A stretch of 39,472 nt of DNA from Jimgerdemannia flammicorona (Eukaryota). Where the stretch lies: contig RBNJ01000140.1 in the NCBI GenBank assembly GCA_003990765.1, positions 1 to 39,472 on the forward strand, read 5' to 3'. Below the pieces are notes generated by a model. It saw only the letters and a list, made by a program, of their open reading frames with translations, made no database searches and was not told the DNA's origin. A program made the position numbers and the translations under genes. This document shows, in pieces, positions 121-39,472 of the stretch (position 1 is its first letter; each line of letters starts with the position of its first letter).

Positions 121-937
121 TGTAATAACTCTTACTTCTACCCCTCTCTTATCCTTAGGATAATTAGAGAAGTGAACTATTACTTAGAGACTTAGTACAC
201 AATGTGTACCAAGAAGCCTTCAGTTTAAGAAAGTGCTTGCTTAAAGTAGTTTTAGCAGTAGTGCCTTATCTTTCAAAGGTCTTTCTTGGGTTTGCCTTCT
301 GTTTCAAAGGTCTTTCTCTTGTGCCGTATTTCAAGGGTCTTGTTCTTTGCTGTATACAGACTAAATTCATCTTGGAATTCAGGTTCAATGGGTTTACTTA
401 AGTCTTTGGGGATTTATATACTGGTCTCAGTTCTGGCAGAAGTTAGCTAGGCTTCTGGAGTTTGGTCAGAAACACTAGAGTCACTTAGAGGTCATTACTA
501 AGACTCAGGGGAATGTGTGTAGGGAGGGGGAACTTGATTCTTATATCAAGGACTGAACTAAAACTACTTTATTTCAGATGGAAACTGGGGGGTATTTATA
601 CAAGTTGGTCTGCAATTTCTAACTAAGTATGAGTGACTAATTTGGTAACTATAATGAGGTTTGTAATCGCGACCTTTGTCAGGTGGTTTTTGGTAAAGAA
701 TATCTTTGTGATCAGGACCTCAATTACTAGGCAGTGATCAGCAGCTGTGGCAACTGTTGCTGTAGCACTGATTGTTGGAGATAAGCTGGATATCATTTTC
801 TGCATTAATTTGCATTGTTCATCACTCACTATTCATATATCACACTCAATTGTATGATGATATCATTGCTCGCCGGGTCACATGCTCACTCATCATTTGT
901 CGCATCCCATCTGTTCGTGCTCTTTCATTCTATTACA
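121..937 (-). repeat. 3' LTR of Gypsy-1
   Basis: TGTAATA...TATTACA termini; direct repeat of 8495-9311; adjacent to the PPT. Confidence 0.97.
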
Positions 938-950
938 TTCTTCCCCCCTT
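938..950 (-). other. Polypurine tract of Gypsy-1
   Basis: Minus strand reads AAGGGGGGAAGAA directly before the 3' LTR. Confidence 0.9.
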
Positions 951-2334
951 AGAAATCAATATTCTCGTTGATTGAGAAATTGAGAACCAGGGGAGAGAAA
1001 GGTGGGGAATCCTCCTCAGGGTCATTACCATCTTCTTCAAGAGCAGGGGGGGTGGTGGTTGCAGATGGCTCACTGTCCAGAATGGAGAAGTCAATGAGGT
1101 CTGCAAATGGTTCTTACATTGGAATAGGTGCTGGTATAGGGGTTCTCCATCTGATGCAGTTGGGACCATCCAAGTAGGGCTCTTGATCTTCATGCCTAGG
1201 AATATCCATTTGGATAGGCAGTCCTTCAAAGAGGTCAGAGAGACCTTAGAGCCATTGGTCAGAGTTGTCATTCAGGAGGGGGCTCCAGTAGGGTTCATAG
1301 TCAGTAGACTTGAGGGCAATCCAGGAGTTGGCTTCTTGGGCAACCTTGACTTCTAGGGCATCGACCTCAGAGAAAGAGAGGTTCTGGAAGTCCTTCAGTT
1401 ACATGTAGTTGAGGTTGGGGATCACGAAGGGTGCATGGCACATGATTTGATGGACCTTCTTGGCAAGTCTTTGCTCGTGTCTGTTAGGTGGGTCCAATCA
1501 GAGACTTGGTCCATGGGCAGGTCCTATACCTATTGGAGGAGTTGATGGCCAATCTCGTATTCATACCAGATCTCTAGGCAGCTGGTAGCAAGGTAGGCCA
1601 TTTCAATAATTTCATGGTGGTCAAGGACATACTGTCCTAGGTCTGGGCTGGAGAGGTTAAGGGCCTCTGAGCAGCGGTTCCTTTCTTGGATGGCAACCTG
1701 GATGTGTCCAAAGAGGCGTTCAACCTGGCTAGGGAGGGGCTGGCTATGGCGGGCAGTTTGGCAGCAGGTGGCAGGCATTCTTGTCTTGTCTTTTCTTTGT
1801 GAGGAAAGGGGGATGAGAGTTGCAGGGTATTCTTGCCTTGGGTCTTTATACTTATTCACCTGTCTGATGTGACCTTCCTTTGGTCATACTTCCTGGCAAA
1901 ATGCATGACCTGTGCTGTAAGCAGGATATGTGCTGGTCACATGAGAAAATCCTGATTTCAAAGATCTCATCACCCATAGTTGTGGTTACACAGGGTTAAC
2001 AGGTCTTGGTCCACTTTTTTTTTGTCTGGTTGGCATATTTGCGAGAACTGGCCATCCTTGTCTAGGGCGAGGGCTCCCATTGTCGTGGCTGGGGGTTCGA
2101 ACCTCTCGGAAATAGGCTTTCTTGTAATTCGAGGCAATTCTTTAGTAACAATATCTGTCATGTGGATGACTTAGACTGGTTTCGACATAGTCAGCTTTCC
2201 TAAGTTTCAAATGAAGCATCTGTTATCATCCAGCAGAAATGACACAGATGGCGTAAAACAGAGTTGTTCAAATGTATTTTGCTGTACTGTACTAGATTGT
2301 TCTTTTGCTTGGTATCTTCTTATTGGTTATCCAT
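949..2334 (-). pseudogene. Extra ORF3 between pol and 3' LTR, unknown function (best-supported core ~949-1865)
   Basis: Homologous to 31557-32923. Stops are single transitions that differ between copies, a 21-nt indel preserves frame, and the stop codon overlaps the PPT. The 5' limit is uncertain. Confidence 0.6.
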
Positions 2335-2439
2335 AGTGTTCCTTTTTCTCTGCAATGTTTGGTATTTTATATTTCCAGTTAAAAATATGTGGTACCCTTC
2401 TGCTCACTGTGTGCTCCTATACTTAGAGCTGTAGTTCCT

Positions 2440-2625
2440 TCCTTTGCTGGGGGGTGAGTGTTTCCATGTAGTCCTGGAGGGCTTCACGTACATTCTTCAG
2501 GGCTTCTTCTTTTTCCCAGGTAGCATCATGGGTGGGGTAACCCTTCCACTTGATCAGGAAAAAGCACTTGACTGTTTTGGGATATTTGCAGACCTTGTGG
2601 TCAAGTACTTCCTCAATTTCGAATT
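2440..2625 (-). other. Integrase C-terminal chromodomain (group I type)
   Basis: EFEIEEVLDHK...FFLIKWKGYPTHDATWEKEEAL; aromatic cage residues F, W and Y are present. Confidence 0.92.
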
Positions 2626-2779
2626 CCTCATGATCATTGATCCTAATTGGGGGTGGTGGTGGAACTGTATGCTCAGGGAATGGGTTCTCATGGTAGTCCA
2701 CCAATTGGCTGATGTGGAATACTGGGTGTACTCAGATATTGTGGGGAAGTTGCAACTTGTAGTTAACTTCACTGATTTT

Positions 2780-3720
2780 TTCCATAATCTTGTATGGTCC
2801 AATTCTTCTAGCACAGAGTTTCTTGGCTGGTTATTATGCCAGAGTGTCTGAGTGGAGGTGGTCTGTTCTAAGCATGACCTTGTCACTAATATTGTAGGAG
2901 GCTTCTCTTTGCTTCAAGTTCGCATACTTGATCTGGTAGTCTTGTGCTTCAATGAGAGCATCTCTTGTCATTCGGGTGAGGTCAGAAATGGTCTTGGCCA
3001 GATCTTGGGCTGCTGAGACTGCTGATTTCGCAGTAGTACTTGGAGTCCTTGGGTGTTGACCATGGTTCAGGAAGAATGGAGTCTTCTTTGTAGAGGTTTG
3101 CTGACTGTTGTTGTAGGCAAACTCAGTATGAGCTAGGTACTTGTCCCAATCATTTTGCTTATAACAGCAGAAGATGCTAAGCATCTGTTTGAGAGTCCTG
3201 TTTGTTTGCTTGTTTTGACCATCAGTCTGAGGGTGGTAGGCAGTAGAGAACTTCAGCTTGGTTCCATGGAGGGAGAAAAATGCCTTCCAGAAGTTGCTTG
3301 TGAACTTGGTATCTCAGTCAGATACAATAGTGCTAGGTATGCCATGTAGCCTGAATACTTGATTGAGGAAAATCTTGGCAATCTCTGGTACTGTAGCAGT
3401 AGTCTTGGTGGATACAAAATAGGCTTGTTTACTTAGGCAGTCCATGAATACCATGATGGCATCCCATCCTGCCTTGGTCTTGGGGAGTTGGACAATGAAG
3501 TCCATTGCAATCTGGTCCCAATTGTGACTTGGGATAGGCAAGGGTTGCAGGAGTCCTGCTGGTAGCTTGTTACTACTTTAGAATCTTTGGCACATCTCGC
3601 ATGAGGCCACAAAGTCTTTGATATCCTTAGTTATCTTTGGCCAGTAGCACTCTCTTGAGAGGAGGTTGTAGGTCTTTTCAAAACCAAAATGTCCAGCTGC
3701 AGGGGTATCATGGAGTTCCT
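2780..3720 (-). other. Integrase domain (HHCC, DDE core, GPY motif)
   Basis: HDTPAAGHFG...[38 protein letters not shown]. Confidence 0.93.
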
Positions 3721-3959
3721 GTATGATCTTGAGTCACAGAGTATTATTGCTGGGTACAACCACTCTGTCATGGTCCCTGTAGATAAGTCCATCATGGTAG
3801 GCAAATCTCTTGGCCATTTGCCTCATGGGTTCTGGAACCTCGGCCTCTGGGTCTTGGCAGAATTGAAGGAAATTCATCAGAGGGCTGTCTTGCTGGTAGC
3901 CATCCTTGATCATTTGGGTAAGGTCTCCAATTACTTTGACCATGAAGACAAGTTCGTCT

Positions 3960-4330
3960 TCCAAGTACCTGGAGAAACCATCAGCCACACGGTTGGTTTT
4001 GCCTGGGATATACTTGATTTCCATATCAAAGTTGGTAATGATTTCCATTCAGCGGACTTGTCTGTAGGTCAGAATAGGCTGTGTGTGAATATACCACAGT
4101 GCATGGTGATCTGTATAGGCCACAAATGGCTGTCCTAGGAGAAAATAGCACCATTCTTGGAGTACAGTGACAATAGCCAGGAGTTTCTTCTCATGGGTGG
4201 TATACCGAGTCTCAGCTGGCTTGAGCTTCTGTGAAAGGTAGGCCACTGGGCAGTCTTCTTGGCTAAGCACTGCTCCAATAGCATTATCAGAGGCATCTGT
4301 GGTCAGAGTGAATGGCCTGGTAGGGTCAGG
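3960..4330 (-). other. RNase H domain
   Basis: FTLTTDASDNAIGAVLSQ...YTTHEKKLLAIV...YTDHHAL...YIPGKTNRVADGFSR. Confidence 0.93.
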
Positions 4331-4479
4331 TGCAATTAGCACTAGGGCTTCAGTAAGGAGTCTCTTGAGGTGGTCCATAGCTAGAGTGTATTTGGGGGTC
4401 CATTCAGCTTTGATGTTCACTTCTTTGTGGGCCAGACTGGTCAATGGGGCTGCAATAGCAGAGTATCCTTGGATAAACC

Positions 4480-5150
4480 TTCAGTAATAACTGGCAATAC
4501 CTAGAAAGCACTGGAGTAGCTTGAGGGTTGTAGGGATAGAGATATCCTTGAGGGCTAATATTTTCCAGGGGTCCACGTTGATACCTTCAGCAGAGATGAT
4601 GTGTCCTAGATATTCAATCTGGTCTTGGTAGAACTTGTATTTGCTCATCTTGGCATAGAGCTGGTGTTCTTGCAGGAGGGTTGGTACTTGTCTGAGATGG
4701 GTGTAGTGTAGCTCTACTGTCTCGCTGTAGATTAGTATATCATCAATATACACAAGGACACAGATGTTGAGGAGTGGTCCAAAGATGTCATTCATCAGAT
4801 ACTGGAATGTTGCTGGTGTATTGGTCAATCCAAAAGGCATGACTCAGAACTGGTAGTGTCTAAACCGTGTTCGGAAAGCTGTCTTCTCAATGTCTTTTTC
4901 ATCAATGAGAATCTGGTGGTAGCTATTTCACAAATCCAGTAGAGAAAAGGTCTTTGCCTTGAAGATTTGGTGTAGCAACTCATAAATTCTGAGCAAGGCA
5001 TACTGATTCTTGATAGTGATCTTGTTGAGGGCTCTGTAATCAATACACATTTGCAGAGAGCCATCCTTCTTCTTGACAAATAGAATGGGGGCTCCAAATG
5101 GAGAGTGGCTGGGTTCAATGTATCCTTGGGCCAGTAGTTTGGTCAATTCA
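4480..5150 (-). other. Reverse transcriptase domain
   Basis: [53 protein letters not shown]. Confidence 0.96.
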
Positions 5151-5489
5151 TCCTTGAGGGTCTTGAGCTCAGGTTGAGCCAGTTGATAGATACTCTTGTA
5201 TGGGGGTTCAGATCCTGGAATAAGATAAATTCCATGTTGGATTTGGCACTTGGGTGGAAGTCCTTGAGAATCTTGAAATATATCTTGGAATTCTTCAAAT
5301 AGTTCTTGAGCTTCTGTTGGAATTGGACTACTTGTAGCTTCAGTGACTTCTTGTCCTGTAGAGATGAAGTAGGTGTTTCCCTTTTTTTTGAGATAGTCTC
5401 TTCATTTGAATGGCAGAGATGATTTCGATTCCTTGGTAGTTGGTACCTTCCTGGGGTGTCAGGGTGATCTTTCTGCCTTCGTGGGTCAG

Positions 5490-5820
5490 GTTAACCTCAT
5501 TAGTTCTCCAGTTGATGTCTGAGTTATGCTGGGTCAACCAGGCTTTTCCTAAGATAATGTCTTGTCCTGGGAGATCTACAATGCTGAAGTCCAACTTCTC
5601 TTGATATTTGCCAATCTTGAGCAAAAGGTCTTCACAGATCTTGGTCAATGGTGCAGTCTTTCCATCACCAAAGGTAACACTTCTTTTCTCAGTAGTTGGT
5701 CTGCTTCAGGCTCTAATCCTCTTGGCAGTCTTGGTGCTGATGTAGTTTCCAATAGCACCACTATCAAGCAAGACATTGACATTTTGTCTGTAGACTTGGC
5801 CTGTAAACTTGATGCAACTA
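5490..5820 (-). other. Aspartic protease domain
   Basis: VNVLLDSGA catalytic motif near 5755-5780; DIILGKAWL. Confidence 0.9.
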
Positions 5821-6140
5821 TCCTCCTTCTTGATGGTATTGAGCTCTTCATCCTCGTTATTGTCCCAATTGCTGTCAGTCTCCTCGAAGTCAGTTTCTCC
5901 CCATCCTTCACAAGGAGGGTTGTCTTGTTTGGGTCCCTCAGTCTGTTGAGCTTAGCGCTTCTCGGATTGAATTTTGAAAACTTTGGAGAGGCATGTATGG
6001 CATTCACCAACATGTTCCATACAGTACATTCAAATAGAATGAGGGCATCATCCACATGGTGCATAACCATATGCAATTCTCTTGTACCAGTTTTCATCAT
6101 CTTCCTTCATAGTAGTGACCTTTTGACTGGGAGGTTTGTT

Positions 6141-6530
6141 GGTAGATCCAAACCCTTTCTTGCCACGATCTGTCTGGGAGAGTTCAGGGACTTCTTCAAT
6201 AGTGAGATCTTGATGGATTTCTTCAATGATGGCTTGGGCAATTCTTTGGCCTGCTTTGACTTCAAATGATGTGTCTCCAAAATTTCGCAATATGACATGG
6301 ATTTCACCAGTAAATCCTTGATCAACTACTCCTCCGCCTAGCCCAATGTTGAACTCTTTGGCTAGGCTACTTTGCTCAGCAAAGCAGATATATGTTCCTT
6401 TGGGAGCTTGCATTGCAATTCCTGTTTGCACTGTAGCATTGGTGCTTGGTGGGATAGTGAGGTCTTGGCTGCTGTAGAGGTCATATCCAGCATCAGTTGG
6501 GTGGGCCTTAGTGGGGATGGTAGTCTTGTA
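6141..6530 (-). other. dut: Trimeric dUTPase domain inside the polyprotein
   Basis: All five motifs are recognisable: AGYDL, (R/Q)SSLA, GVVDQGFTGEI, GQRIAQAI, RGKKGFGST. Confidence 0.95.
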
Positions 6531-6639
6531 CCATATCTTCTGTACTTTGATGATATTCTCAGGGTTCTTCTTTACTGGGCCTTCTCCAATAACAGTAATG
6601 TTCTTGTTACTGGGTTCGCCTGTTCTATTCTTCTTTTCA

Positions 6640-7604
6640 GAGCATCTGAATGAGATGTTTCCTGCCTTCTTACAGATAAAACACAATCCCTTTTCATGGA
6701 GCTGCCTCTTTTCATCCTCAGTGGGAGGTCTGGATCCCCTGGGGTTTTGCTGGTTCCTTTGATCATTCTGTTGATCATATCTTTGATCATTCCTCCTGGT
6801 AGGATTTCTCCTATCTTAGTTATCCTTCTTGTATTCTTGATTTTGTAGAGCTTATGTAGCAAGGATTTTGCAGGCTCTTCTTTGTACTTGGACAAAGCAC
6901 CATGAGTAGTGGGGACATCCTTGGGGGAGACCTTGTTCCTTGATCTTCTGGGTGAGCCAGTCTGGTAGGACTGCAAAGAGATAGTTGGCTCTGGTACCAT
7001 TGATGGCCAAATTGTTCTCCTGATAGGTAAGTCCAACAGTTTTGAGATAGGCATCCATTCTGGTGACAAAGATCTCTAGATCCTCTTTGCCATTCTTGTG
7101 GAACTTCATCTGGGACAGTTTGTTCCATGTTTCTTGTATATAGGCCACATTTTGGAATTTGGTCAGTAGCAAGGCCTTGAGTCCTGGGCCTGCTTCGTAG
7201 TCATCCTAACCTGGTCTATTGTTGCCAGGTACTTGTCCATTGACTTGAGGGTGGGCTTCCCAGGTTACTGGGTGTTGTTCCAAGATTCGCCAGAATTCGG
7301 CTGCTGTTTCAGTGAAGAATGTGGCTACTATTTCTACTTGTACTACTGATGTGGCAAACAGCTGTTGAAGGGTGCTGTTCTGGTTGTTGGTGAGCATTCC
7401 TATAGGTACTCAGTTGTCATTCCATTGGTTTGCTCGGTAGCCTGTGTCAACTGCATTGATGAAGTTTTCAATGTTACTGTTTTTTCCACTAAATGTTGGA
7501 ATTCGCAAGGTCTTGGTTGGTTTGTTCTGTTCAGCAATCTGTCCTACTATCCCTGCTAGTGCTACTAGCTGGGTGGTCAGTGCTGTAATGTTGACATCTA
7601 CCAT
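6640..7604 (-). other. gag: Gag core with CCHC zinc knuckle
   Basis: IPTFSGKNSNIENF gag-type motif; knuckle CFICKKAGNISFRC (CFICKKAGHISVKC in Gypsy-3, a perfect CX2CX4HX4C). Confidence 0.85.
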
Positions 7605-8479
7605 TATGTTGACTAGTGGTGATGGGCCTGTTAGGGTAGATTCTCCTGAAGATTGATCTGCTTGATGGGGTTGTGGTGCTGTATGACTTGGAGTTACTTG
7701 GTTCCTAGATATTAAGTCAAAGAGTCCTGTGAGAGAGGGTAAACCAAACCTCTATATAGGTGGCTGAGTTGGTTCTGGGGTCTGATCTTCTTGACCTGTG
7801 GTTCCTTGGTAAATTTCTAGGCCTGCTGTTCCTCATTGACTATCGTCAGACTGGTAACCTGTAGAGTCTTCGTCTGACTCCCTTCCCTGATGAGATAGTG
7901 CATCCTTGTACTGACTAGGTCTTTCAAAGAGGATATCAGTCTCTGGCTGGGTTGATGGACCTACTCCTTGTTCAGCAGTAGGGGATGTGTGACCTGTTTA
8001 CTCATTCTTGTACCTAGTTATGGCAGAGGCATAGTATACAACTAGTCTGTAGTAGAGGGAGGTCTTGGTTGGTGTATGATGATACCTGTCAGAGGCAATC
8101 CACTTGGCAGCTGCTTCTCTTACAGCAGGGGGTGTAATATAATCTAAAAAATCCTAGGTGGCTGCAGCAGTAGATTCTGGGGTCCTAGTGATTCCAATGT
8201 GTCCTTGGAGGAGTTCATAGAACCTATGGCAGCTAACAATATTCCTAAGACCTGGGTGGTATGTCCTAAATGTCTGGTATAGATCCTTATAAGCCTGGTC
8301 AATTACAAGCTGGTGGGTCCTTGGGTCTGTGGTTTCCTGGTACCACCTGGTCCTAATGGCAAGGGCTTCTCTGGCTCTGGTTTGGGGATCCACAGTTATT
8401 TCTGGGGGTTACTCCTGTCCAAGGTTGGTCTTGTTCCAACTTCAGGAGTGTGTTCTTTATTGTCTTCTTGGCTGGTAAT

Positions 8480-8491
8480 CCACTGCTACCA
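8480..8491 (-). other. Primer-binding site, tRNA type (probably initiator Met)
   Basis: Minus strand TGGTAGCAGTGG, 3 nt after the 5' LTR; conserved at 27138-27149 and 39071-39082. Confidence 0.8.
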
Positions 8492-8494
8492 AGT

Positions 8495-9311
8495 TGTAAT
8501 AACTCTTACTTCTATCCCTCTCTTATCCTTAGGATAATTAGGGAAGTGGACTATTACTTAGAGACTTAGTACACAATGTGTACCAAGAAGCCTTCAGTTT
8601 GAGGAAGCACTTGCTTAAAGTAGTTGTAGCAGTAGTGTCTTATCTTTCAAAGGTCTTTCTTGGGTTTGCCTTCTGTTTTAAAGGTCTTTCTCTTGTGCCC
8701 TATTTCGAGGGTCTTGTTCTTTGCTGTGCACAGACTGAATTTGCCTTGGAATTCAGGTTCAATGGGTTTACTTAAGTCTTTGGAGATTTATATATCAGTC
8801 TCAGTTCTGGCAGAAGTTAGCTAGGCTTCTGGAGTTCAGTCAGAAACACTAGAGTCACTTAGAGGTGATTACTAAGACTCAGGGAAATGTGTGTGGGGAG
8901 GGAGGACTTGATTCTTATATCAACAACTGAACTAAAACTGCTTTATTTCAGATGGAAACTGGGGGGTATTTATACAAGTTGGTCTGCAATTTCTGACTAA
9001 ATATGAGTGACTAATTTGGTAACTATAATGAGGTTTGTGATCGCAATCTTTGTCAGGTGGTTTTTGGTAAAGAATATCTTTATGATCAGGACTTCAATTA
9101 CTAGGCAGTGATCAGCAGCTGTGGCAACTGTTGCTGTGGTGCCGATTGTTGGGGATAAGCTGGATATCGTTTTCTGCATCATTTCACATCATTCATCACT
9201 CGCTATTCATATGTTGCACTTGATCATATGATGAGGTCATCGCTCGCCGGGTCACGTGATTGCTCGTCATTCATTGCATCCCATCTGTTCGCGCTCTTTC
9301 ATTCTATTACA
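8495..9311 (-). repeat. 5' LTR of Gypsy-1
   Basis: TGTAATA...TATTACA, 817 bp, adjacent to the PBS. Confidence 0.97.
8967..8974 (-). promoter_or_regulatory. Putative LTR TATA box (TATAAATA) with AATAAA about 20 nt downstream
   Basis: GGGGGTATTTATA and TTTATT are conserved in all four complete LTRs (for example 593-600 and 568-573). Confidence 0.6.
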
Positions 9312-12300
9312 CAACCTACTCCAATTTTCCACTGCACCTCACCCTCACCTAATATCAAATGACCCTGACTCCCCACTATAATATCTTGTACTTAACTACC
9401 CCCAACTTCTGTTGCCTATCCTGGTACCACCAACCCTGTATTACTTCCCATACTAGCCAATGCCATTGCTCAACCAGGTCCCCAATTCTCATCCAACATT
9501 CGCCTTCAAAGACCCATCACCAGTATGCTGCCATTAAGACCCACACTCCTAAAATCCACCCAACACCTCCCCAAATGTCCCCAACATCTCCCACCAGTCT
9601 CCTCCAGATGATGACACTAATCGACTCTCCCAGCCTCCTTCTATCAGAGCCCCAATATTCCTCCAGCATCTGCCAATAGCCCTCCACCCCTGGACAGGCC
9701 TCAATGACATGCTCTGGGGTCTGAACTACTTCTCCAGAGCTCTCTGCACACCATTCACAATTTCTGCATCTATTGACCACCATCCATCCTGTCTGATAGT
9801 TCAACATGACATTCCTTCTCAGAAACCTCCACCAAACCACCCAATACCGAGGAGATACCACCTTATTCAGAGTAGTGGCCCATCTCCAAATTCTACCCCA
9901 TTTCCACATCTTACCAATACCAGCTGTCTGCCATCCCACCGGCCACCGCTCAAGAGGGCCTGACCTGGCCCATTCCATTGCCTCAACCAGAGAGTAGTCC
10001 TTCAGCTCCTTTCCTCCTATCCTAAGTAACTCAAGTTGCTACCACCACTGCTCAGGGTCCACCCCCTCCTCTATTGCTGCCACCTCTGGCCCCATTAGGC
10101 CCATCGTAAGCCAGGCCTCCACGATGCCCCACCAGAACCCTTTGAACTGCATTCTCCCCACAGACCCAACCTGAAGTAGCCCTCGCAGATCCTTCCTCTC
10201 CGTGCCCTAGAGGCAGAACCTGATCTTCCAATTGTCCATTGCCAATCTGCCCCAGCTCTCTTCTCCTAATTCCACTAGTTGGCGACCCCACCAGCCCCTA
10301 AGTGCCTTCAACCTTCACCGAAAGTCCACCAACCCCAAACCACCATTAGGAATTGGCCGCACTAATACTTCCCATCCAATCTGTGGCTGTCTACCCTTCC
10401 AGAGCCACCCTTCAATAGCCTTCTTGAGACACCACACTACCCAACCTGAGAAATCTAGGTGATAACCCAGGTACCACAGCTTCGGCAGCCAGTACACATT
10501 CAGGACCACCACTCTTCCTGCTAGAGAGAGGTTTCGACCAGCCCAATCCATCAGCACACCTTCCCATTTTTATACCATGGAATTCCACCACTCCTTCAGC
10601 AGAACAGTCCCAAAAACTGAAAACCATATCCCTAAGTACTGGACTGTCTCTTCCTTAGACACTACTCATCCAAGCCCTGCTACCCCTAAGTCTGCACCAA
10701 GCTCTAAGGTTTCACACTTCCTCCAGTTCAACTTTGCACCCGCCAACCCCTCATACTATTCTATTCCTTCCCTTAGAATGTCCACATCCTCCACACTGCT
10801 GAGCCCCACCACCATGTCATCTGCAAAGATCCCCAGTTGCTAAACTACCTCACCCATATGCTGTCTATTCAGCTGTCCTCTCAGCCAGGCCAGCACTGGC
10901 TCTAATGAGAGGATATAAAGAAGCAGAGAAAGAGGGTTCCCTTGTAGAACCCCTCTTCCCAAGGTAAACTCTGGACTGCTCCAGCCATTCATCAGTACTG
11001 CCCCTCAGCAGCCTCACACCAGCCCCATCAACCATCCAACCTCTCTTAGCTGAAATCCTACTTTCTGGAGTCCCGCTTCTAGGTAACACCACCATACCCT
11101 ATCATAGGCCTTCTCTTGATCCAAAAAGACTATCCTCCCATCAATCTGCCTACTCCTACAGCCTTCCAAAACATTTTGCACCCAGGCAGTACTGTCTCTA
11201 ATTTGCTGACCCTTCACAAAGCCCCTCTTCTCTTCTCCTATCAGTCTTCCAACCCACTGCTACAATCTTCCCACTAAGATTTTGGAGGCTAGCTTCCTGT
11301 TGACATTCGGCAGCATGATCGGCCGCCAATTACGCCACTCCCTCCTGTCACCTTTCTCCTTGTACAGCAAAGACACCAGACCCAAACTTCCATTCCCAAT
11401 CCACCTTCCTTCTTCAAGTACAAAATTAACCATTTCAACAAGCTAAGCTCCAAATTCCACCAGAAACTCCTTCCAAAATTCCCAAGGGAGACCATTCTCC
11501 CCTGACAAAGAACCACTCGGTGCCTTCTGCAAAACCTCCAACACCTCCTCCAAAGATACTCTGCTGAATACTGATGCTCCAATCTCTGGTAGTGACACTA
11601 CTGGCCAATCACATTCTAGAGGTGCCTCTGCAACATCCTCTACTCCAACACCCCCTCCCATGTCATCATCACTCTAAAGGGTCCGCCATTGTCCTGAGAT
11701 CTCCTCCAACATATCCACTATACTGGTGACCTCAACACTATCCTCTTGCAAAACTGAAGACCAGCTGTGTCGAACATTCCTCACCTTCAAGACACCAGAT
11801 AGGTACTTAGTCAGTCTTTCACTCTCTTCCAGTCATCTAGTCCTTAGGCACACTAGGAGCCCATCTACAACTCTATTCTCAGCCTCCCTCAAGGTTGCCT
11901 TTAAGTTGACTACTTCTCTAGTAAGTTGACCCTTCCTCTCTTCTGCCAGTGAACCATCCTTCAACAGCTTCAGCTGCCACCTCAGACCCCTTTCAACTCT
12001 CCTTTCCTTGTCCTTTTGCTCCTTTCCTACCACTTCTCTGGTGTCTCTCCAATATGCACCAGCAAGGTGCTTAAATCTGCCCCACCAATCTGCAATAGAT
12101 AGACCTCCAGCCACCCATCATCCTACTTCTTGTTGGGTCACATGGACGAATCACTCTCATTCTGCTGAATGCTGGAGCAGAGCTACATTGAGATGTCAGT
12201 ACCCGCCTCCCCCATTAATTGCCTGGAATCTCCCACTCACCTCCACTCCCCAATGGTCTGACCATGGGCACCACCATATCCCGACTGCATTGAAAACATT

Positions 12301-26985: not shown

Positions 26986-27014
26986 AAAAAAAAAAATAAA
27001 AATAAAAATAAAAA
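26986..27014 (+). repeat. Poly(A)-derived tail A11(TAAAAA)3
   Basis: Read directly from the sequence. Confidence 0.9.
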
Positions 27015-27962
27015 TAGCAAGGGCTTCTCTGGCTCTAGTTTGGGGATCCACAGTTGTTTCTGGGGGTTACTCCTGTCCAAGGTTGGTCTTGTTCCAACTT
27101 CAGGAGTGTGTCCTTTGGTGCCTTCTTGGCTGGTAAACCACTGCTACCAAGTTGTAATAACTCTCACTTCTACCCCTCTCTTATCCTTGAGATAATTAGG
27201 GAAGTAGACTATTACTTAGGGACTTAGTACACAATGTATACCAAGAAGCCTTCAGTTTGAGGAAGCGCTTGCTTAAAGTAGTTGTAGTGGCAGTACCTTA
27301 TCTTTCAAAGGTCTTTCTCTGGGTTGCCTTCTGTTTCAAAGGTCTTTCTCTTGTGCCCTATTTTGAGGGTCTTGTTCTTTGGTGTGCACAGACTGAATTC
27401 GCCTTGGAATTCAGATTCAATGGATTTACTTAAGTCTTTGGGGATTTATATACTGGTCTCAGTTCTGGCAGAAGTTAGCTAGGCTTCTGGAGTTTAGTCA
27501 GAAACACTAGAGTCACTTAGATGTCATTACTAAGACTCAGAGGAATGTGTGTGTGTGGGGGGACTTGATTCTTGTATCAAGGACTGATCTAAAACTGCTT
27601 TATTTCAGATGAAAAACTGGGGGGTATTTATACAAGTTGGTCCATGATTTCTGACTAAGTATGAGTGACTAATTTGGTAACTATAATGAGGTTTGTGATT
27701 GTGACCTTTGTCAGGTAGTTTTTGGTAAAGAATATCTTTGTGATCAGGACCTCAATTACTAGGCAATGATCAGCAGCTGTGGCAACTGTTGCTGTGGCAC
27801 CAGTTGTTAGGGATAAGCTGGATATCGTTTTCCATGTCATTTTGCATTGTTTGTCTGTTCATTATTCATATGCTATGCTCAATCATATGATGACGTCATC
27901 ACCGGGTCACATGATCATTTGTCTTGTCGTATCCCATCTGTTCGCTCATTCATTCTATTACA
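27015..27962 (-). mobile_element. Gypsy-2 remnant: 5' LTR, PBS and about 135 bp of leader
   Basis: 27017-27152 matches ~8359-8494; PBS at 27138-27149. Confidence 0.93.
27153..27962 (-). repeat. 5' LTR of Gypsy-2
   Basis: TGTAATA...TATTACA, 810 bp, same LTR family. Confidence 0.96.
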
Positions 27963-30727: not shown

Positions 30728-31545
30728 TGTAATAACTCTCACTTCTACCCCTCTCTTATCCTTAGGATAATTAGGGAAGTGGACTATTACTTAGGGACTT
30801 AGTACACAATGTGTACCAAGAAGCCTTCAGTTTGAGGAAGCACTTGCTTATAAGTAAGTGTAGTAGCAGTGCCTTATCTTTCAAAGGTCTTTTTCTTAGG
30901 TGCCTTTTGTTTCAAAGGTCTTTCTCTTGTGCCCTATTTCAAGGGTCTTGTTCTTTGCTGTGCACAGACTGAATTCGCCTTGGAATTCAGGTTCAATGAG
31001 TTAACTTAAGTCTTTGGGGGTTTATATACCAGTCTCAGTTCTGGCAGAAGTTAGCTAGGCTTCTGGAGTTTAGTCAGAAACACTAGAGTCACTTAGATGT
31101 CATTACTAAGACTCAGGGGAATGTATGTATATGGGGGGGACTTATTCTTGTATCAAGGACTAAACTAAAACTGCTTTATTTCGGATGGAAACTGGGGGGT
31201 ATTTATACAAGTTGGTCCTATGATTTCTGACTAAGTATGAGTGACTAATTTGGTAACTATAATGAGGTTTGTGATCGTAACCTTTGTCAGGTGGTTTTTG
31301 GTAAAAACAACTTTGTGATCAGGACCTCAATTACTAGGCAATGATCTGCTGCTGTGGCAACTATTGCTGCAGTGCTGATTGTTGGGGATAAGCTGGATAT
31401 CGTTTTCCATGTTGTTTCGCATCATTTGTTCATTCGTTCGTCACTCACTATTCATATATCATGCTCGATCATATGATGACGTTATCACCGGGTCACATGA
31501 TCACTCGTCGTTCATCGCATCCCATCTGTTCATCATTCTATTACA
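30728..31545 (-). repeat. 3' LTR of Gypsy-3
   Basis: TGTAATA...TATTACA, 818 bp; left flank GGCAC is the predicted TSD. Confidence 0.96.
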
Positions 31546-31558
31546 TCCTTCTCCCCTT
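31546..31558 (-). other. Polypurine tract of Gypsy-3
   Basis: Minus strand AAGGGGAGAAGGA before the LTR. Confidence 0.88.
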
Positions 31559-32923
31559 AGAAATCAATGTCCTCGTTGATTGAGAAATTGAGAACCAGGG
31601 GAGAGAAAGGTGGGGAATCTTCCTCAGGGGCAGGGGGGGTGGTTGTTGCTGATGACTCGCTGTCCAGGATGGAGAAGTCAATGAGGTCTGCAAATGGTTC
31701 TTGTATTGGAATAGGTGCTGGTGTAGGGGTTCTCCATCTGATGCAGTTGGGGCCATCCAAGTAGGGCTCTTGGTCTTCATGCCTGGGAATATCCATTCGG
31801 ATAGGTGGTCTTTCAAAGAGATCAGATAGGTCTTGGAGCCATTGGTCAGGGTTGTCATTCAGGAGGGGGCTCCAGTAGGGTTCGCAGTTAGTAGACTTGA
31901 GGGCAATCCAAGAGTTGGCTTCTTGAGCGACCTTGACTTCTAGGGCATCAACCTCAGAGAAAGAGAGGTTCTGGAAGTCCTTCAGTTGTATGTAGTTGAG
32001 ATTGGGGATTGCGAAGGGTATATGGCACATGATTTGATGGACCTTCTTAGCAAGTCTTTGCTCGTGTCTATCTAGGTGAGTCCAGTCAGAGACTTGGTCC
32101 ATTGGCAGGTCCTTTGTATGTTAGAGGAGTTGATGGCCAATCTCGTATTTGTGCCAGATTTCTAGGTGGCTGGTAGCAAGGTAGGCCCTTTCAATAAGTT
32201 CATGGTGGTCAAGGACATACTGTCCTAGGTCTGGGCTGGAGAGGTTAAGGGCCTCTGAGCAGTGGTTCCTTCCTTGGATGGCAACCTGGATATGTCCAAA
32301 GAGGCAGTCAATCTGGCTTGGGAGGGGCTGGCTGTGGCAGGCAGTTTGGTGGTGGGTGGCAGGTATTCTTGTCTTGTCTTTTCTTTATGAGGAAAGGGGG
32401 ATGAGAGTTGCGGGGTATTCTTGCCTTGGATATTTATACTTATTCACCCATCTGATGTGACCTTCCTTTGGTCATGCTTTCTGGCAAAATACATGACCTG
32501 TACTGTAAGCGGAGCATGTGCTGGTCATATAAGGAAATCCTGATTTCAAAGATCTCATCACCTATCTGTGGTTACACAGGGTTAACAGGTCTTGGTCCAC
32601 TTTTTTTTTTGTCTGGTTGGCACATTTGCAAGGACTGGCCATCCTTGTCTAGGGCAAGGGCTCCTATTGTCATGGCTGGGGGTTGAAACCTCTCAGAAAT
32701 AGACTTTCTTGTAATCTGAGGCAATTCTTTAGTAACAATATCTGTCATGTGGATGGACTTAGACTGGTTTCGACATTGTCGGCTTTCCTAAGTTTCACAT
32801 GAAGCATCTGTCATCATCCAGTGGAGATGATACAGATGGCGTGAAACAGAGTTGTTCAAATGTGTTTTGCTGTACTATACTAGATTGTTCTTTTGCTCAG
32901 GTATCCTCTTGTTGGTTATCCAT
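31557..32923 (-). pseudogene. Extra ORF3 of Gypsy-3 (181-aa open segment 31557-32102, extending upstream through TAA codons that are CAA-like in Gypsy-1)
   Basis: Homologous to the Gypsy-1 ORF3 region; ends at the PPT. Confidence 0.62.
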
Positions 32924-33013
32924 AGTGTTCCTTTTTTCACTGCAATGTTTGGTATTATATGTTTCCAGATAAAGATATGTGGTATCCTTTTTACTCGCTG
33001 TGTGCTCCTATAC

Positions 33014-36000
33014 TTAGAGCTGTAGTTCCTTCCTTTGCTGGGGGGTGAGTGTTTCCATGTAGTCCTGGAGGGCTTCATGTGTATTCTTCAGGACTTCTTC
33101 TTTTTCCCAGGTGGCATCGTGGGTGGGGTAACTCTTCCACTTGATCAGGAAAAAGTGCTTGACTGTTTTGGGATATTTGCGGACCTTGTGGTTAAGTACT
33201 TCCTCAATTTCGAATTCCTCATGATCATTGATCCTAATTGAGGGTGGTGGTGGAACTATATGCTTGGGGAATGGGTTCTCATAGTAGTCCACCAATTGGC
33301 TGATATGGAATACCGAGTGTACTCGAATATTGTGGAGAAGTTGCAACTTGTAGTTGACTTCGCTGATTTTTTCCATGATCTTGTATGGTCCAATTCTTCT
33401 AGCATGGAGTTTCTTGGCTGGTTGTTGTGCCAGGGTGTCTGGGTGGAGGTGGTCTGTTCTAAGCATAACCTTGTCACCAATATTGTAGGAGGCTTCTCTT
33501 CACTTCAAATTCGCATACTTGGTCTGGTAGTCTTGTGATTCTATGAGAGCATCTCTTGTCATTTGTATAAGGTCAGAAATGGTCTTGGCCAGATCTTGGG
33601 CTGCTGGGACTGCTGATTTCGCAGTAGTACTTGGGGTCCTTGGGTGTTGACCATGGTTCAGGAAGAATGGAGCCTTCTTTGTGGAGGTTTGCTGACTGTT
33701 GTTGTAGGCAAACTCAGCATGGGCTAGGTACTTATCCCAATCATTTTGCTTGTAACAGCAGAAGATGCTAAGCATCTGTTTGAGAGTCCTGTTTGTTCGC
33801 TCGGTTTGACCGTCAGTCTGAGGGTGGTAGGCAGTAGAGAACTTCAGCTTGGTTCCATGGAGGGAGAAAAATGCCTTCCAGAAGTTGCTTGTGAACTTGG
33901 CATCTCGGTCAGATACAATGGTGCTAGACATGCTATATAGCCTGAATACTTAGTTGAGAAAGATCTTGGCAATCTCTGGTGCTGTAGCAGTAGTCTTGGT
34001 GGGTACAAAATGGGCTTGTTTACTTAGGCAGTCCACGAATACAATGATGGCATCCCATCCTGCCTTGGTCTTGGGGAGTTGGACAATGAAGTCCATCACA
34101 ATCTGATCCCAATTGTGACTCGGGATAGGCAAGGGTTGCAGGAGTCCTGCTGGTAGCTTGTTACAACTTTTGAACCTTTGGCACATCTTGCATGAGGCCA
34201 CAAAGTCTTTGATATCCTTGGTCATCTTTGGCCAGTAGAACTCTCTTGAGAGGAGGTTGTACATCTTTTCAAAACCAAAGTGTCCTGCCACTGGAGTATC
34301 ATGGAGTTCCTGCATGATTTTGAGTCACAGAGTATCATTGTTGGGTACAACTACTCTGTCATGGTCTCTGTAGATAAGTCCATCACGGTAGGTGAATCTC
34401 TTGGCCATTTGCCTCATGGGTTCTGGAACCTTGGCCTCTGGGTCTTGGCAGAATTGAAGGAAATTCATCAGGGGCTGTCTTGCTGGTAGCCATCTTTGAT
34501 CATTTGGGTAAGGTCTCCGATTACTTCAACCATGAAGATAAGTTCATCTTCCATGTACCTGGAGAAACCATCAGCCACACGGTTGGTTTTGCCTGGGATA
34601 TACTTGATTTCCATATCAAAGTTGGTAATGATTTCCATCCAGCAGGCTTGTCTGTGGGTCAGCATGGGCTGTGTGTGAATATACCACAGTGCATGGTGAT
34701 CAGTGTAGGCCACAAATAGCTGTCCTAGGAGGAAATGGCGCCATTCCTGGAGTGCAGTGACAATAGCCAGGAGTTCCTTCTCATGGGTGGTATACCAGGT
34801 CTCAGCTGGTTTGAGCTTTTGGGAGAGGTAGGCCACTGGGCAGTCTTCTTGACTGAGCACTACTCCAATAGCAATATCAGAGGCATCTGTGGTCAGAGTG
34901 AATGGTCTGGTAGGATCAGGGGCAATTAGCACTAGGGCCTTGGTAAGGAGTCTCTTGAGATGGTCTATAGCCAGGGTGCATTCAGGGGTCCATTCAGCTT
35001 TGATGTTCTCTCCTTTACAGGCCAGACTGGTCAATGGGGCTACAATAGCAGAGTATCCTTGGATAAACCTTCAGTAATAACCGACAATACCCAGAAAGCA
35101 TTGGAGTAGCTTGAGGGTAGTAGGGATAGGGATATCCTTAAGAGCTGATACTTTTTGGGGGTCCATGTTGATACCTTCAGCAGAGATGATGTATCCTAAG
35201 TACTCGATCTGGTCTTGGTAGAACTTGCATTTGCTCATCTTGGCATAGAGCTGGTGTTCTCGCAGGAGGGTCAGTACTTGTCTAAGGTGGATGTAGTGTA
35301 GCTCTACTGTCTCACTATAGATTAGTATATCATCAATATACACAAGGACACAGATGTTGAGGAGTGGTTCAAAGATGTCATTTATCAGATACTGGAATGT
35401 TGCTGGTGCATTGGTCAATCCAAAAGGCATGACTCGGAACTGGTAGTGTCCAAACTGTATTCGGAAGGCTGTCTTCTCAATGTCCTTCTCATCAATGAGA
35501 ATCTGGTGGTAGCTATTTCACAAATCCAGTAGAGAAAAGGTTTTGGCCTTGAAGATTTGGTATAGCAACTCATCAATCCTGGGCAAGGCATATCAGTTCT
35601 TGATGGTGATCTTGTTGAGGGCTCTGTAGTCAATACACATTCACAGAGAGCCATCCTTCTTCTTGTCAAATAGAATTGGGGCTCCAAATGGAGAGCAGCT
35701 GGGTTCAATGTATCCTTGGGCCAGTAATTTGGTCAATTCATCCTTGAGGGTCTTGAGGTCAGGTTGGGCCAGTTGGTAGATACTCTTGTATGGGGGTTCA
35801 GATCCTGGGATAAGATCAATTCCATGTTGGATTTGACACTTGGGTGAAAGTCCTTGAGGATCTTGGAATACATCTTGGAATCCTTCAAATAGTTCTTGAG
35901 CTTCTGTTGGAATTGGGCTACTTGTGGCTTCAGTGACTTCTTGTACTGTACAGATAAAGTAGGTGTTTCCCTTTTTTCGAGAGAGTCTCTTCATTTGAAT

Positions 36001-38984
36001 GGCAGAGATGATTTCGATTCCTTGATGGTTGGTACCTTCCTGGGGTATCAGGGTGATCTTTCTGCCTTCATGGGTCAGGTTAACCTCATTGGTTCTCCAG
36101 TTGATGTCTGGGTCAACCAGGCTTTTCCTAAGGTAATGTCTTGCCCTGGGAGGTCTACAATGCTGAAGTCTAACTTCTCTTGATATTTGCTAATCTTGAG
36201 CAAAAGGTCTTCGCAGATCTTGGTCAATGGTGCAGTCTTTCCATCACCAAAGGTAACACTTCTTTTCTCAGTAGTGGGTCTGCTTCGGGCTCCAATCCTC
36301 TTGGTAGTCTTGGTGCTGATGTAGTTTCCAGTAGCACCACTATCAAGCAAGACATTGACATTTTGTCTGTGGACTTGGCCTGTGAACTTGATGCAACTAT
36401 CCTCCTTCTTGATGATATTGAGCTCTTCATCCTCGTTGTTGTCCCAATTGCTGCCAGTCTCCTCAAAGTCCATTTCTCCCCATCCTTTGCAAGGAGGGTT
36501 GTCTTGTTTGGGTTCCTCAGTCTGTTGAGCTTGGCGCTTCTCGGATTGAATTTTGAAAACTTTGGAGAGGCATGAATAGCATTCACCAATATATTCCATG
36601 CAGTACATTTGAATAGAATGAGGGCATCGTCCACATGGTGCATAACCATCTGCAATTCTCTTGTACTAGTTTTCATCATCTTCCTTCATGGTAGTGACCT
36701 TTTGACTGGGAGGTTTGTTGGTAGATCCAAACCCTTTCTTGCCATGGTCTGTCTGGGAGAGTTCGGGGACTTCTTCAATGGTGAGATCTTGACAGATTTC
36801 TTCAATGATTGCTTGGGCAATTCTTTGGCCTGTTTTGACTTCAAATGATGTATCTCCAAAATTTTGCAAGATGACATGGATTTCACCAGTAAATCCTTGG
36901 TCAACTACTCCTCCTCCTAGCCCAATGTTGAATTCTTTGGCTAGGCTGCTTCGCTCAGCAAGGCAGATGTATGTACCTCTGGGGGCTTGCATTGCAATTC
37001 CTGTTCACACTGTAGCATTGGTACTTGGTGGGATGGTTAGGTCTTGGCTGCTGTAGAGGTCATATCCAGCATCAGTTGGGTGGACCTTAGTGGGGATGGT
37101 AGCCTTGTATCATATCTTTTGTACTTTGATGACATTCTCAGGGTTCTTCTTTCCTGGACCTTCTCCAATAACAGTAATGTTCTGGTTACTGGGTTTGCCT
37201 GATCTGTTTCTTTTCTCAGGGCATTTGACTGAGATATGTCCTGCCTTCTTGCAGATGAAGCACAATCCTTTTTCGCAGAGCTGCTTCTTCTCATCCTCAG
37301 TGGGAGGTCTGGGTCCTCTGGGGTTTTGCTGGTTCCTTTGATCATATCTTTGATCATATCTTTGGTCATTTCTTTGATTATTTCTCCTGGTAGGATTTCT
37401 TCTGTCTTGGTTATCCTTCTTGTGTTCTTGATTTCATGGAGCTTGTGTAGCAAGGATTTCACGGGCTCTTCTTTGTACTTGGGCAAAGCACCATGAATAG
37501 TGGGGGCATCCTTGGGGAAGACCTTGTTCCTTGATCTTCTGGGTGAGCCAGTCTGGTAGGGCTGCAAAGAGATAGTTGGCTCTGGTACCATTGATGGCCA
37601 AATTGTTCTCCTGGTAGGTAAGTCCAACCATTTTGAGATATGCATCTATTCTAGTGGCAAAGGTCTCTAGATCCTCTTCGCCATTCTTGTGAAACTTCAT
37701 CTGGGACGTTTGTTCCATGTTTCTTGTATGTAGGCCATATTTCAGAATTTGGTCAGTAACAAGGCCTTGAGTCCTGGGCCTACTTCATAGTCATCCCAAC
37801 CTGGTCTATTGTTGCCAGGTACTTGTCCATTGACTTGAGGGTGGGTTTCCCAGATTACTGGGTGTTATTCCAAGGTTCGCCAGAATTCGGCTGCTGTTCC
37901 AGTGAAGAATGTGGCTACTGTTTCTACTTGTGCTGCTTGATGTGGCAAACAGCTGTTGAAGGGTGCTGTTCTGGTTGTTGGTGAGCATTCCTATAGGTTC
38001 TCAGTTGTCATTCCATTGGTTTGCTCGGTAGTCTGTGTCAACTGCATTGATGAAGTTTTCAATGTCACTGTTTTTTCCACTGAATGTTGGAATTTGCAAG
38101 GTCTTGGTTGGTTTGTTCTGTTCAGCAATTTGTCCTACTATCCCTGCTAGTGCTGCTAGCTGGGTGGTCAGTGCTGTAATATTAGCATCTACCATTGTAT
38201 TGACTAGTGGTAGTGGGCCTGTTGGGGTAGGTTTTCCTGAAGATTGTTCTGCTTAGTGGGGTTGTGGTGCTGTATGACTTGGGGTTACTTGGTTCCCAGA
38301 TATTAAGTCAAAGAGTCCTGTGAGAGAGGGTAAACCAAACCGCTGTATAGGTGGTTGGGTTGGTTCTGGGGTCTGATCTTCTTGACCTGTGGTTCCTTGG
38401 TAAATTCCTAGGCCTGCTGTTCCTCGTTGGCTATCATCAGACTGGTGACCTGTAGATTCTTCGTCTGACTCCCTTCCCTGATGAGATAGTGCGTCCTCGT
38501 ACTGACTAGATCCTTCAAAGAGGATATCAGTCTCTGGCTGAGTTGATGAGCCTGCTCCTTGTTTAGCAGTAGGGGATGGATGGCCTGCTTGCTCATTCTC
38601 ATACCTAGTTATGGCAGAGGTATAGTATACAACTAGCCTGTAGTAGAGGGAGGTCTTGGTTGGGGTATGATGATATCTGTCAGAGGCAATCCACTTGGCA
38701 GCTGCTTCTCTTGCAGCAGAGGGTGTAATATAATCTAAAAAATCCTGGGTGGCTGCAGTAGTAGATTCTGGGATCCTAGTGGTTCCAATGTGTCCTCGGA
38801 GGAGTTTGTAGAACCTATGGCAGCTAATAATATTCCTAAGTCCTGGGTGGTATATCCTAAAGGCCTGGTATAGATCCTTATAAGCCTGGTCAATTACAAG
38901 CTAGTGGGTTCTTGGGTCTGTGGTTTCCTGGTACCACCTGGTCCTAATGGCAAGGGCTTCTCTGGCTCTGGTTTGAGGATCCAC
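33014..38984 (-). pseudogene. gag-pol: gag-dUTPase-pol polyprotein of Gypsy-3
   Basis: CCHC knuckle, dUTPase, LLDSGATGNY, YIDD, TDASD, HDTPVAGH...CKMC, IGPYKI and chromodomain. Confidence 0.94.
36720..37105 (-). other. dut: dUTPase domain of Gypsy-3
   Basis: AGYDL, ERSSLA, GVVDQGFTGEI, GQRIAQ, GKKGFGST. Confidence 0.95.
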
Positions 38985-39070
38985 AGTTGTTTCTGGGGGT
39001 TACTCCTGTCCAAGGTTGGTCTTATTCCAACTTTAGGAGTGTGTTCTTTGGTACCTTCTTGGCTAGTAAA

Positions 39071-39082
39071 CCGCTGCTACCA
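39071..39082 (-). other. Primer-binding site of Gypsy-3
   Basis: Minus strand TGGTAGCAGCGG. Confidence 0.8.
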
Positions 39083-39085
39083 AGT

Positions 39086-39472
39086 TGTAATAACTCTCAC
39101 TTCTACCTTAGGATAATTAGGGAAGTGGACTATTACTTAGAGACTTAGTACACAATGTGTACCAAGAAGCCTTCAGTTTGAGGAAGCGCTCGCTTATAAG
39201 TAAGTATAGTGGCAGTGCCTTATCTTTCAAAGGTCTTTTTCTTGTATGCCTTCTGTTTCAAAGGTCTTTCTCTTGTGCCCTATTTTGAGGGTCTTGTTCT
39301 TTGCTGTGCACAGACTGAATTCGCCTTGGAATTCAGGTTCAATGGGTTTACTTAAGTCTTTGGGGGTTTATATACCAGTCTCAGTTCTGGCAGAAGTTAG
39401 CTAGGCTTCTGGAGTTTAGTCAGAAACACTAGAGTCACTTAGATGTCATTACTAAGAATCAGGGGAATGTGT
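39086..39472 (-). repeat. 5' LTR of Gypsy-3 (partial; about 12-bp deletion near 39107)
   Basis: Begins TGTAATA and matches 30728 onward. Confidence 0.95.

Follow-up and report, generated by a model that had tools for sequence, protein, structure and literature searches.

The 39,472-nucleotide contig RBNJ01000140.1 of Jimgerdemannia flammicorona, called the window in what follows, contains a chromovirus with a dUTPase encoded between its nucleocapsid (NC) and its protease (PR). The locus raises the question of where this enzyme came from and what it did at that position. It raises a second, because Gag is preceded in the same frame by a long open region in which AUG codons are almost absent: could such a region be translated, and how? 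The reading that best explains the whole, to which we give a probability of about 0.6, is that of a chromodomain element that carried its dUTPase within the polyprotein and made a long and a short form of Gag by non-AUG initiation and leaky scanning.

The element (copy A; Table 1) lies between two copies of caacc, a target duplication of 5 bp (116-120 and 9312-9316). Among further copies that were checked the 5-bp flanks match in three of four, with a mismatch in the remaining one. A DNA search of the genome for the family (family 1) gave 835 candidates, of which 40 were scored, with other copies at 92-94% identity. The set of 22 copies used below comprises 20 full-length copies from those 40 together with the two long copies of the window; the 21 others align with copy A at about 89-92% identity. 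Copy B is 91.2% identical over 8809 columns, and its translation places a dUTPase at about 36714-37140. The start of transcription of family 1 was placed from the TATA-like box. In a search for the primer tRNA the nearest genomic tRNA was tRNA-Leu(TAA), whose match to the primer-binding site (PBS) is imperfect.

Table 1. Features of family 1 in the window.
Feature	Position	Strand	Details
Copy A, full-length LTR retrotransposon, decayed	121-9311	minus	9191 bp; TG...CA ends
5′ LTR of copy A	8495-9311	minus	817 bp; TATA-like box 8974, AATAAA 8947
Four-codon uORF	8855-8869	minus	ATG in 18/21 copies, stop at codon 5 in 21/21
Primer-binding site	8480-8491	minus	from sequence; alike in all three families for which the leader was read
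AUG-free extension, in frame with Gag	7607-8408	minus	264 codons scored
Gag capsid region	6860-7604	minus	first AUG 7604, ATG in 18/22 copies; without Pfam family
CCHC zinc knuckle (nucleocapsid)	6642-6683	minus	His absent in copy A, present in 18/22 copies
dUTPase domain, five motifs	6141-6560	minus	I 6491, II 6380, III 6332, IV 6251, V 6167-6141
Cys/His cluster, putative zinc site	5991-6056	minus	CP[H/C/F]...Y...CxxC
Aspartic protease	5480-5800	minus	DSG at 5765; Pfam gag-asp_proteas 5.7e-07 (copy B)
RT, RNase H, integrase, SH3-like domain, chromodomain	2424-5380	minus	Pfam on copy B
ORF3, sense strand	949-1880	minus	open frame after a stop common to 16/16 copies
Polypurine tract	938-950	minus	from sequence
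3′ LTR of copy A	121-937	minus	LTR-LTR identity 91.3%
Truncated copy: 5′ LTR, leader, start of extension	27013-27962	minus	88.7% identity to element positions 1-957
Copy B, same family	30728-39472	minus	5′ LTR cut by contig end

Copy A is not an intact gene, its frame being interrupted by about a dozen stops between 8408 and 5400, and just one of the 22 copies is free of stops from NC to protease. Pairwise divergence across the family is 7.7% (element positions 818-8369), and about 90% of the differences are transitions. On both strands the rates of decay are 0.63-0.71 at CpG, 0.13-0.16 at CpA and CpC, and 0.04-0.06 at CpT; the decay is of the methylation type, biased to CpG and including non-CpG sites. 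Family 1 is a high-copy chromodomain Ty3/gypsy retrotransposon that is now dead.

Pieces at least 85% alike to the family occur in four public contig sets (X1, X3, X5 and X8) from soil, root and one coded organism, and in these runs they cover 25-30 of 30 bins. Elsewhere in the window, the region from about 9320 to 30700 holds several decayed elements in both orientations with a strong GC skew. Three ORF pieces there match RVT_1, and these elements are probably non-LTR retrotransposons.

Read in a single frame, the domains of family 1 follow one another in the order extension, Gag, CCHC knuckle, dUTPase, Cys cluster, PR, reverse transcriptase (RT), RNase H (RH), integrase (IN) and chromodomain. 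From 8399 to 5400 the 22 copies have no majority stop in this frame, whereas 4-26 per region are counted in the other two frames combined. Two majority stops lie beyond this stretch, at 4930 and at 2911, both on CpG-type sites. The frameshift near 5388 in copy A is absent from all 20 other copies that cover the site. Thus the frame is continuous over the copies and the frameshift is private to copy A, from which we conclude that there is no programmed gag/pol frameshift, in agreement with the preliminary description of this locus. In single-ORF elements such as Tf1 the ratio of Gag to Pol is adjusted by degradation.

A homologue search with the NC-dUTPase ORF among longer proteins returned one protein of the same family, P0001, from 593 candidates. 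Using P0001 to search 1.84 billion representatives, Gag homologues were found in P0004, P0008, P0014, P0021 and P0046. The CCHC knuckle is present as described (6683-6642) save for the His lost from copy A, and the Pfam zf-CCHC match in P0001 is weak, lying under the cut-off. The protease Asp is kept in 20 of the 22 copies. In copy B Pfam matches RVT_1, RT_RNaseH, Integrase_H2C2, SH3_Tf2-1 and Chromo (1.9e-12). The chromodomain lies at the integrase's C-terminal end and matches CDY/HP1 structures, with the aromatic cage residues F, W and Y aligned with those of CDY; in the accessible part of PMC3350952 such a cage belongs to group I chromodomains. The element therefore has what identifies a chromovirus (LTR ends, PBS, polypurine tract, target duplication, PR-RT-RH-IN order and a C-terminal chromodomain), in agreement with its first assignment. 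The nearest RT relatives of a sister family (see below) include many chromodomain-bearing proteins; the backbone of the RT trees is poorly supported.

We note that a hydrophobic V/I-x-x-I/L/M motif occurs at every domain boundary in this and related families; in copy A the positions are 6620-6590, 6130-6100, 5850-5820 and 5420-5400. Those flanking the dUTPase are candidate protease sites, judged by eye.

The dUTPase is called by Pfam (PF00692) with E=6.1e-32 and 110.5 bits (cut-off 22); the match spans positions 3-128 of the 129 in the model. In the PDB it is most similar to cellular homotrimeric dUTPases (E=1e-30). The Pfam match begins 39 codons after the knuckle, where a spacing of about 40 residues had been noted, and the domain lies upstream of the DSG protease in both long copies of the window, copy B (30728-39472) having the same layout. 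The enzyme had been described as complete. All five motifs are indeed found in frame, with the qualification that copy A lacks the Arg of motif II.

Is family 1 alone in this genome? A PF00692 search gave 8265 first-look dUTPase candidates, of which 150 were scored, and revealed one intron-bearing host gene. Thirty dUTPase loci were read: 28 belong to family 2, one to the sister family, and one is a retrocopy of the host gene. After 20 more stretches four families were resolved, in each of which the dUTPase follows NC and precedes the protease. The sister family is about 9.6 kb long, has the same accessory parts as family 1 and is about 55% identical to it in RT. Families 2 (L042-L070 and L079-L083; about 6 kb with ~400-bp LTRs) and 4 (L094, L095 and L098) are plain chromoviruses of NC-dUTPase-PR order that have neither extension nor Cys cluster, and their dUTPases group with the metagenome protein P0209. 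The sister family has a stop between NC and dUTPase (L092 3017) in 8 of 11 copies; the other three carry CpG-type alleles at this site, so that decay is likelier than programmed read-through.

The preliminary description suggested that family 1 had captured its dUTPase independently, and proposed separate RT and dUTPase trees. In both free dUTPase trees the element enzymes fall into three separate groups, the deep branches disagreeing, and pairwise dUTPase identity among family 1, the sister family and families 2/4 is only 36-44%. Both results count against a single ancient capture in a chromovirus ancestor of all four families, which we regard as a tentative alternative. It would account for the enzyme occupying the same slot in four families and for PBS sequences that are alike in the three that were read, and AU tests on the dUTPase do not reject family 1 and the sister group as one clade (p-AU 0.945 and 0.196). 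Neither is family 1 with the sister family rejected for RT (p-AU 0.197, with 40 of 71 rows kept). The donor of the dUTPase and the number of captures were not recovered from the dUTPase or the RT trees. An independent capture of the family 1 enzyme is plausible.

The host dUTPase gene (L072 1-1147) has three GT-AG introns, read by eye. At L041 1498-1905 (minus strand) there is an intronless, decayed copy of it with an A-run behind it. This is a processed pseudogene, and host dUTPase mRNA therefore gets reverse-transcribed in this genome. In the dUTPase tree the retrocopy groups with proteins of fungal appearance, which, along with the style of the introns, the group I-type chromodomain and the occurrence of the family in soil and root data, suggests a fungal host. 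The element dUTPases are 40-44% identical to this retrocopy, which makes a recent capture from the host's own dUTPase unlikely. With at least four dUTPase families, the genome is a test bed for the question of why retroelements keep capturing this enzyme.

The state of the domain in the copies bears on its function. All 22 copies retain the Asp of motif I, the Asp of motif III and the motif IV Gln. The motif II Arg survives in six copies, its codon being a decayed CpG site, and the motif V Arg in eight. All 22 copies lack the usual Gly of motif II and have Phe in place of Tyr in motif III, the usual residues being taken from alignments of the yeast and human dUTPases. Among transversion variants in the dUTPase, 11 of 13 in family 1 (p=2e-4) and 12 of 16 in the sister family are at third codon positions; for the two families together this is 23/29 (p=5e-7), compared with 41/117 in non-coding parts. 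Shared and single variants were pooled for this test after a first look. Such a bias is consistent with purifying selection in the period when the family was active. The same test on gag of family 1 gave no signal (16/47, p=0.51). We conclude that the dUTPase was under purifying selection during the spread of the family, and from its sequence it was very probably an active enzyme.

The exclusion of uracil is its likely role. The dUTPase would be made within the single polyprotein, packed into the particle and probably cut free by the element's own protease. There it would lower dUTP locally, so that reverse transcription would yield less uracil-containing cDNA. The available parts of PMC2864245 and PMC4531489 give use in non-dividing cells as the rationale for an element dUTPase. 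It is unlikely that the domain was kept mainly for a non-catalytic role, by trimerizing NC, or to supply dUMP for dTTP. The NC-dUTPase of M-PMV co-folds, imposing trimeric symmetry on NC (PMC1802613, in the text available), and motifs II and III of family 1 do deviate from those of the cellular enzymes, but the catalytic Asp and Gln residues are invariant. Moreover, in other Ty3/gypsy elements the dUTPase is remote from NC, encoded either after PR and before RT or after RNase H and before IN, which argues for selection on the enzyme and not on its fusion to NC.

The Gag extension, the Cys cluster and the 3′ ORF all recur in the sister family, and Gag and the Cys cluster recur in metagenome proteins, so the suggestion that this is an accessory-rich lineage is borne out. 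Nine proteins contain the Cys motif. In most of them it comes after the dUTPase; P0004 has it ahead of the dUTPase, and P0046 has the motif but lacks a dUTPase. The modules of the lineage are thus not in a fixed order. Relatives with both dUTPase and Cys cluster (P0011, P0018, P0025 and P0089) came from the search of 1.84 billion representatives with P0001. The 28-aa piece that leads into the Cys cluster of the sister family has no match in the PDB. In ORF3, 29 of 54 transversions are at third positions (p=0.0016). Pfam offers nothing better than E=0.066 for ORF3 and hence no known family, and BLASTP with parts of the ORF3s of family 1 and the sister family detected no similarity, leaving homology between the two unproven. 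In the ESM Atlas neither the extension nor ORF3 had anything better than leads, all of them under 0.9.

A survey of domain order among relatives, as had been proposed, yields the four genome families with NC-dUTPase-PR and metagenome loci with other orders. In a metagenome scan of 80 loci none had the extension or the Cys cluster; 50 had the dUTPase only and 30 had other Ty3/gypsy layouts. No relative was found in IMG/VR. At 27 of the 80 loci (L099-L148, L177) a Ty3/gypsy element has its dUTPase directly after RNase H, and before the integrase where this is covered; most of the 27 also match the SH3/chromodomain query. This is the position of the non-primate lentiviruses, and it lies outside the three positions given in the accessible text of PMC2864245. 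In L130, L169 and L174 the dUTPase follows PR. P0014 and P0018, both known from proteins alone, are each on an ENA contig of 8463 bp. If this is one contig, Gag is split there from dUTPase-PR in two ORFs, a layout closer to that of the betaretroviruses.

We turn to the extension, which the preliminary description named without mention of its lack of AUG codons. It is bounded by a stop at 8411 in 21 of 21 copies and by the first in-frame ATG, at 7604 (18 of 22). It has no majority stop in the Gag frame, against 8 and 18 in the other two frames. The extension of the sister family likewise runs for 284 codons without a majority stop; over both families the other frames have 8-23. The two extensions are homologous over their first ~170 residues (E=2e-9, 25% identity over 171 aa).

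If a site is counted, in any frame, when 75% or more of the copies have ATG there, the extension of family 1 has one such site and that of the sister family none. By comparison, downstream windows of about 800 nt have 10-22 stable ATGs (eight windows, family 1) and 14-19 (six windows, sister family). The void is significant (Poisson p=3e-6 and 6e-8, respectively) and is specific to ATG in that the counts of CAT and GAT are normal. The exception in family 1 is site 8011, with ATG in 16 of 21 copies. Wherever ATG reaches at least 20% of copies within the extension, ACA also occurs (9/9 sites in family 1 and 4/4 in the sister family), mostly with ACG, whereas the ATG sites of Gag (11/11) have no ACA or ACG alleles. 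The ACA and ACG alleles are the mark of CpG decay, and it follows that the extension has no inherited AUG in any frame.

Third-position bias in the extension is significant for the pooled families (38/80, p=0.006), with p=0.053 and 0.031 for each separately. The first ~140 codons are predicted to form a helical domain, in a model of low confidence (pLDDT 52); a fold search with this model returned unrelated helical bundles only, with a best Z of 6.8. A profile search with the extension matched a single protein among 8000 candidates, P0154, which is of the same family. P0154 is an independent family member known from the protein alone, with no Pfam hits, and is called without a stop from the residue of a candidate GUG start (below) through Gag. 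Taking the frame and its conservation together, the extension was in all probability translated.

Given that the extension has no AUG, how might translation begin? Upstream there is a short uORF. Of the ATGs after the TATA box and before that of Gag, only the one that opens this uORF is free of CpG-type alleles; in copy A it is broken. The sister family has a uORF of the same layout (ATG in 8/9 copies, stop in 9/9). Near the head of the extension a candidate GUG start lies at 8393-8391, which reads GTG in 19 of 21 copies; position -3 is a purine and +4 a G in 21/21. Pattern counts at this site gave at least 40 instances with G and at least two without, one of the latter being ATG and possibly unrelated. 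In the sister family the near-cognate candidates at the head of the frame are CTG and ATT. Near-cognate codons are common, and one at the head of a frame is therefore weak support. In a family without the extension (L080) a Met lies about 70 nt past the LTR.

The mechanism we favour, by analogy with viral systems discussed below, is a non-AUG start combined with leaky scanning. Ribosomes would translate the four-codon uORF and then resume scanning. A minority would initiate at a near-cognate codon, the best candidate being the GUG at 8393, producing a minor long Gag-Pol isoform with the helical domain. The majority would scan through the AUG-free stretch of about 800 bases, reach the AUG at 7604 and make the major short Gag-Pol. 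Our best guess is that the helical domain has a regulatory or targeting role in the minor form. No strong leader hairpin of the shunting type was found; folding of the leader gave z=-1.37, with -1.2 to +0.8 near the PBS, in decayed copies. Just upstream of the extension both families have a GTTGG...CCAAC hairpin (8449-8409 in copy A and about 1110-1165 in L092), which is not stronger than shuffled sequences and is possibly a packaging or dimer signal.

An AUG might alternatively be supplied to the extension by splicing from a short upstream exon, with unspliced RNA still scanned to give ordinary Gag-Pol. The introns of the host are GT-AG, and 20 of 21 copies of family 1 have a GT at offset 11 of the uORF, whose phase is compatible with four YAG sites at 8376-8346. 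We nevertheless consider this improbable. In the sister family the uORF contains no GT, and the earliest YAG (L092 1280) is downstream of the point at which homology starts (about 1187). For an AUG ahead of the TATA box to be used, transcription would have to start further upstream.

More improbable still is that the extension is a relic, once started from an AUG as in P0004 and P0021, that lost its start and became an AUG-purged 5′ UTR: the long N-terminal regions of these two proteins contain Met, which counts against an AUG-free reading, the similarity of the extension to them yields only leads (E=0.011 for P0004 and 0.33 for P0021) and its selection signal is modest, but 264 and 284 codons without a majority stop, where the other frames have 8-23, persist in families only 25% identical there, and a purge of AUG from three frames should have taken long enough for stops to accumulate.

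If the extension was translated by leaky scanning as set out above, LTR retrotransposons make two forms of Gag by non-AUG initiation and long-range leaky scanning. In a search of mostly open-access literature we found no LTR retrotransposon for which a Gag extension with a non-AUG start had been reported. Annotation that relies on AUG does not see such domains, and if this one is translated, fungal retrotransposons may have more accessory content than has been counted.

It remains to compare family 1 with known systems. In the Gypsy elements of Postia placenta the dUTPase is placed at the amino-terminus of Pol (PosPlaTy3-3), at the carboxyl end, or between PR and RT, according to the accessible text of PMC2864245, which also points to dUTPases in PosPlaTy3-4 and -5, in Phanerochaete elements and in Tuber Tmt1. 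PosPlaTy3-3 is, like family 1, a fungal Gypsy element with dUTPase upstream of protease, and two plain chromovirus families in the present genome have the NC-dUTPase-PR order too. The novelty first claimed for the position is accordingly withdrawn; the position was already known and family 1 adds one case to the pattern. The architecture had thus largely been described with respect to position. That does not extend to the accessory parts, since the same text, the comparison being with its description only, has no Gag extension, Cys cluster or tied extra ORF for PosPlaTy3-3. In Entomophthora, dUTPase, aspartic protease and zf-CCHC domains are jointly enriched, as stated in the available part of 10.1101/2023.09.13.557621; in that of PMC3248453 no mention of dUTP was found.

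The rotifer elements Juno, Vesta and TelKA and the planarian element Burro have the order PR-dUTPase-RT in the accessible parts of PMC5408684 and PMC6431247. As described there they resemble family 1 in being Ty3/gypsy-like with a dUTPase and extra ORFs, and Juno has an extra Zn knuckle after its dUTPase. They differ in that the enzyme lies between PR and RT, and the rotifer elements have no chromodomain.

The order NC-dUTPase-PR is shared with the betaretroviruses (MMTV p30 and M-PMV), and to this extent the parallel drawn in the preliminary description holds. It does not hold for expression. The betaretroviral dUTPase is a gag-pro trans-frame protein (PMC4531489) that is fused to NC (PMC1802613), so that, as far as these sources are available, a gag-pro frameshift is needed and the fusion is kept, whereas the frame of family 1 is continuous. 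Family 1 is also unlike the betaretroviruses in having about 110 codons and a Cys cluster between dUTPase and protease, and a chromodomain on its integrase.

MLV glyco-Gag is a membrane glycoprotein. Its start codon is a CUG, 88 codons ahead of the AUG of Gag (PMC5120145, in the part available), which adds 88 residues, while the extensions of family 1 and the sister family are about 260-285 residues, predicted to be helical and known from sequence alone. We are somewhat inclined to the view that this is an undescribed chromovirus lineage that converged on an NC-adjacent dUTPase together with a glyco-Gag-like long Gag, i.e. one with about 260-285 extra residues and a non-AUG start, and that has in addition a putative zinc motif and a 3′ ORF under selection. 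In rice tungro bacilliform virus (RTBV), ORF I starts at AUU and is followed by leaky scanning over 900 AUG-free nt (PMC5902531, accessible text). Like family 1 on the reading favoured here, RTBV has a short 5′ uORF and a non-AUG first ORF, with about 900 AUG-free nt before the AUG of its polyprotein. In the same text, RTBV ORF I is separate and is reached by shunting over a stable hairpin, whereas the extension of family 1 is fused to Gag, and no strong hairpin was found in its leader. A device for making two forms of Gag, if it is true of LTR retrotransposons, is one documented so far for gammaretroviruses and plant pararetroviruses.
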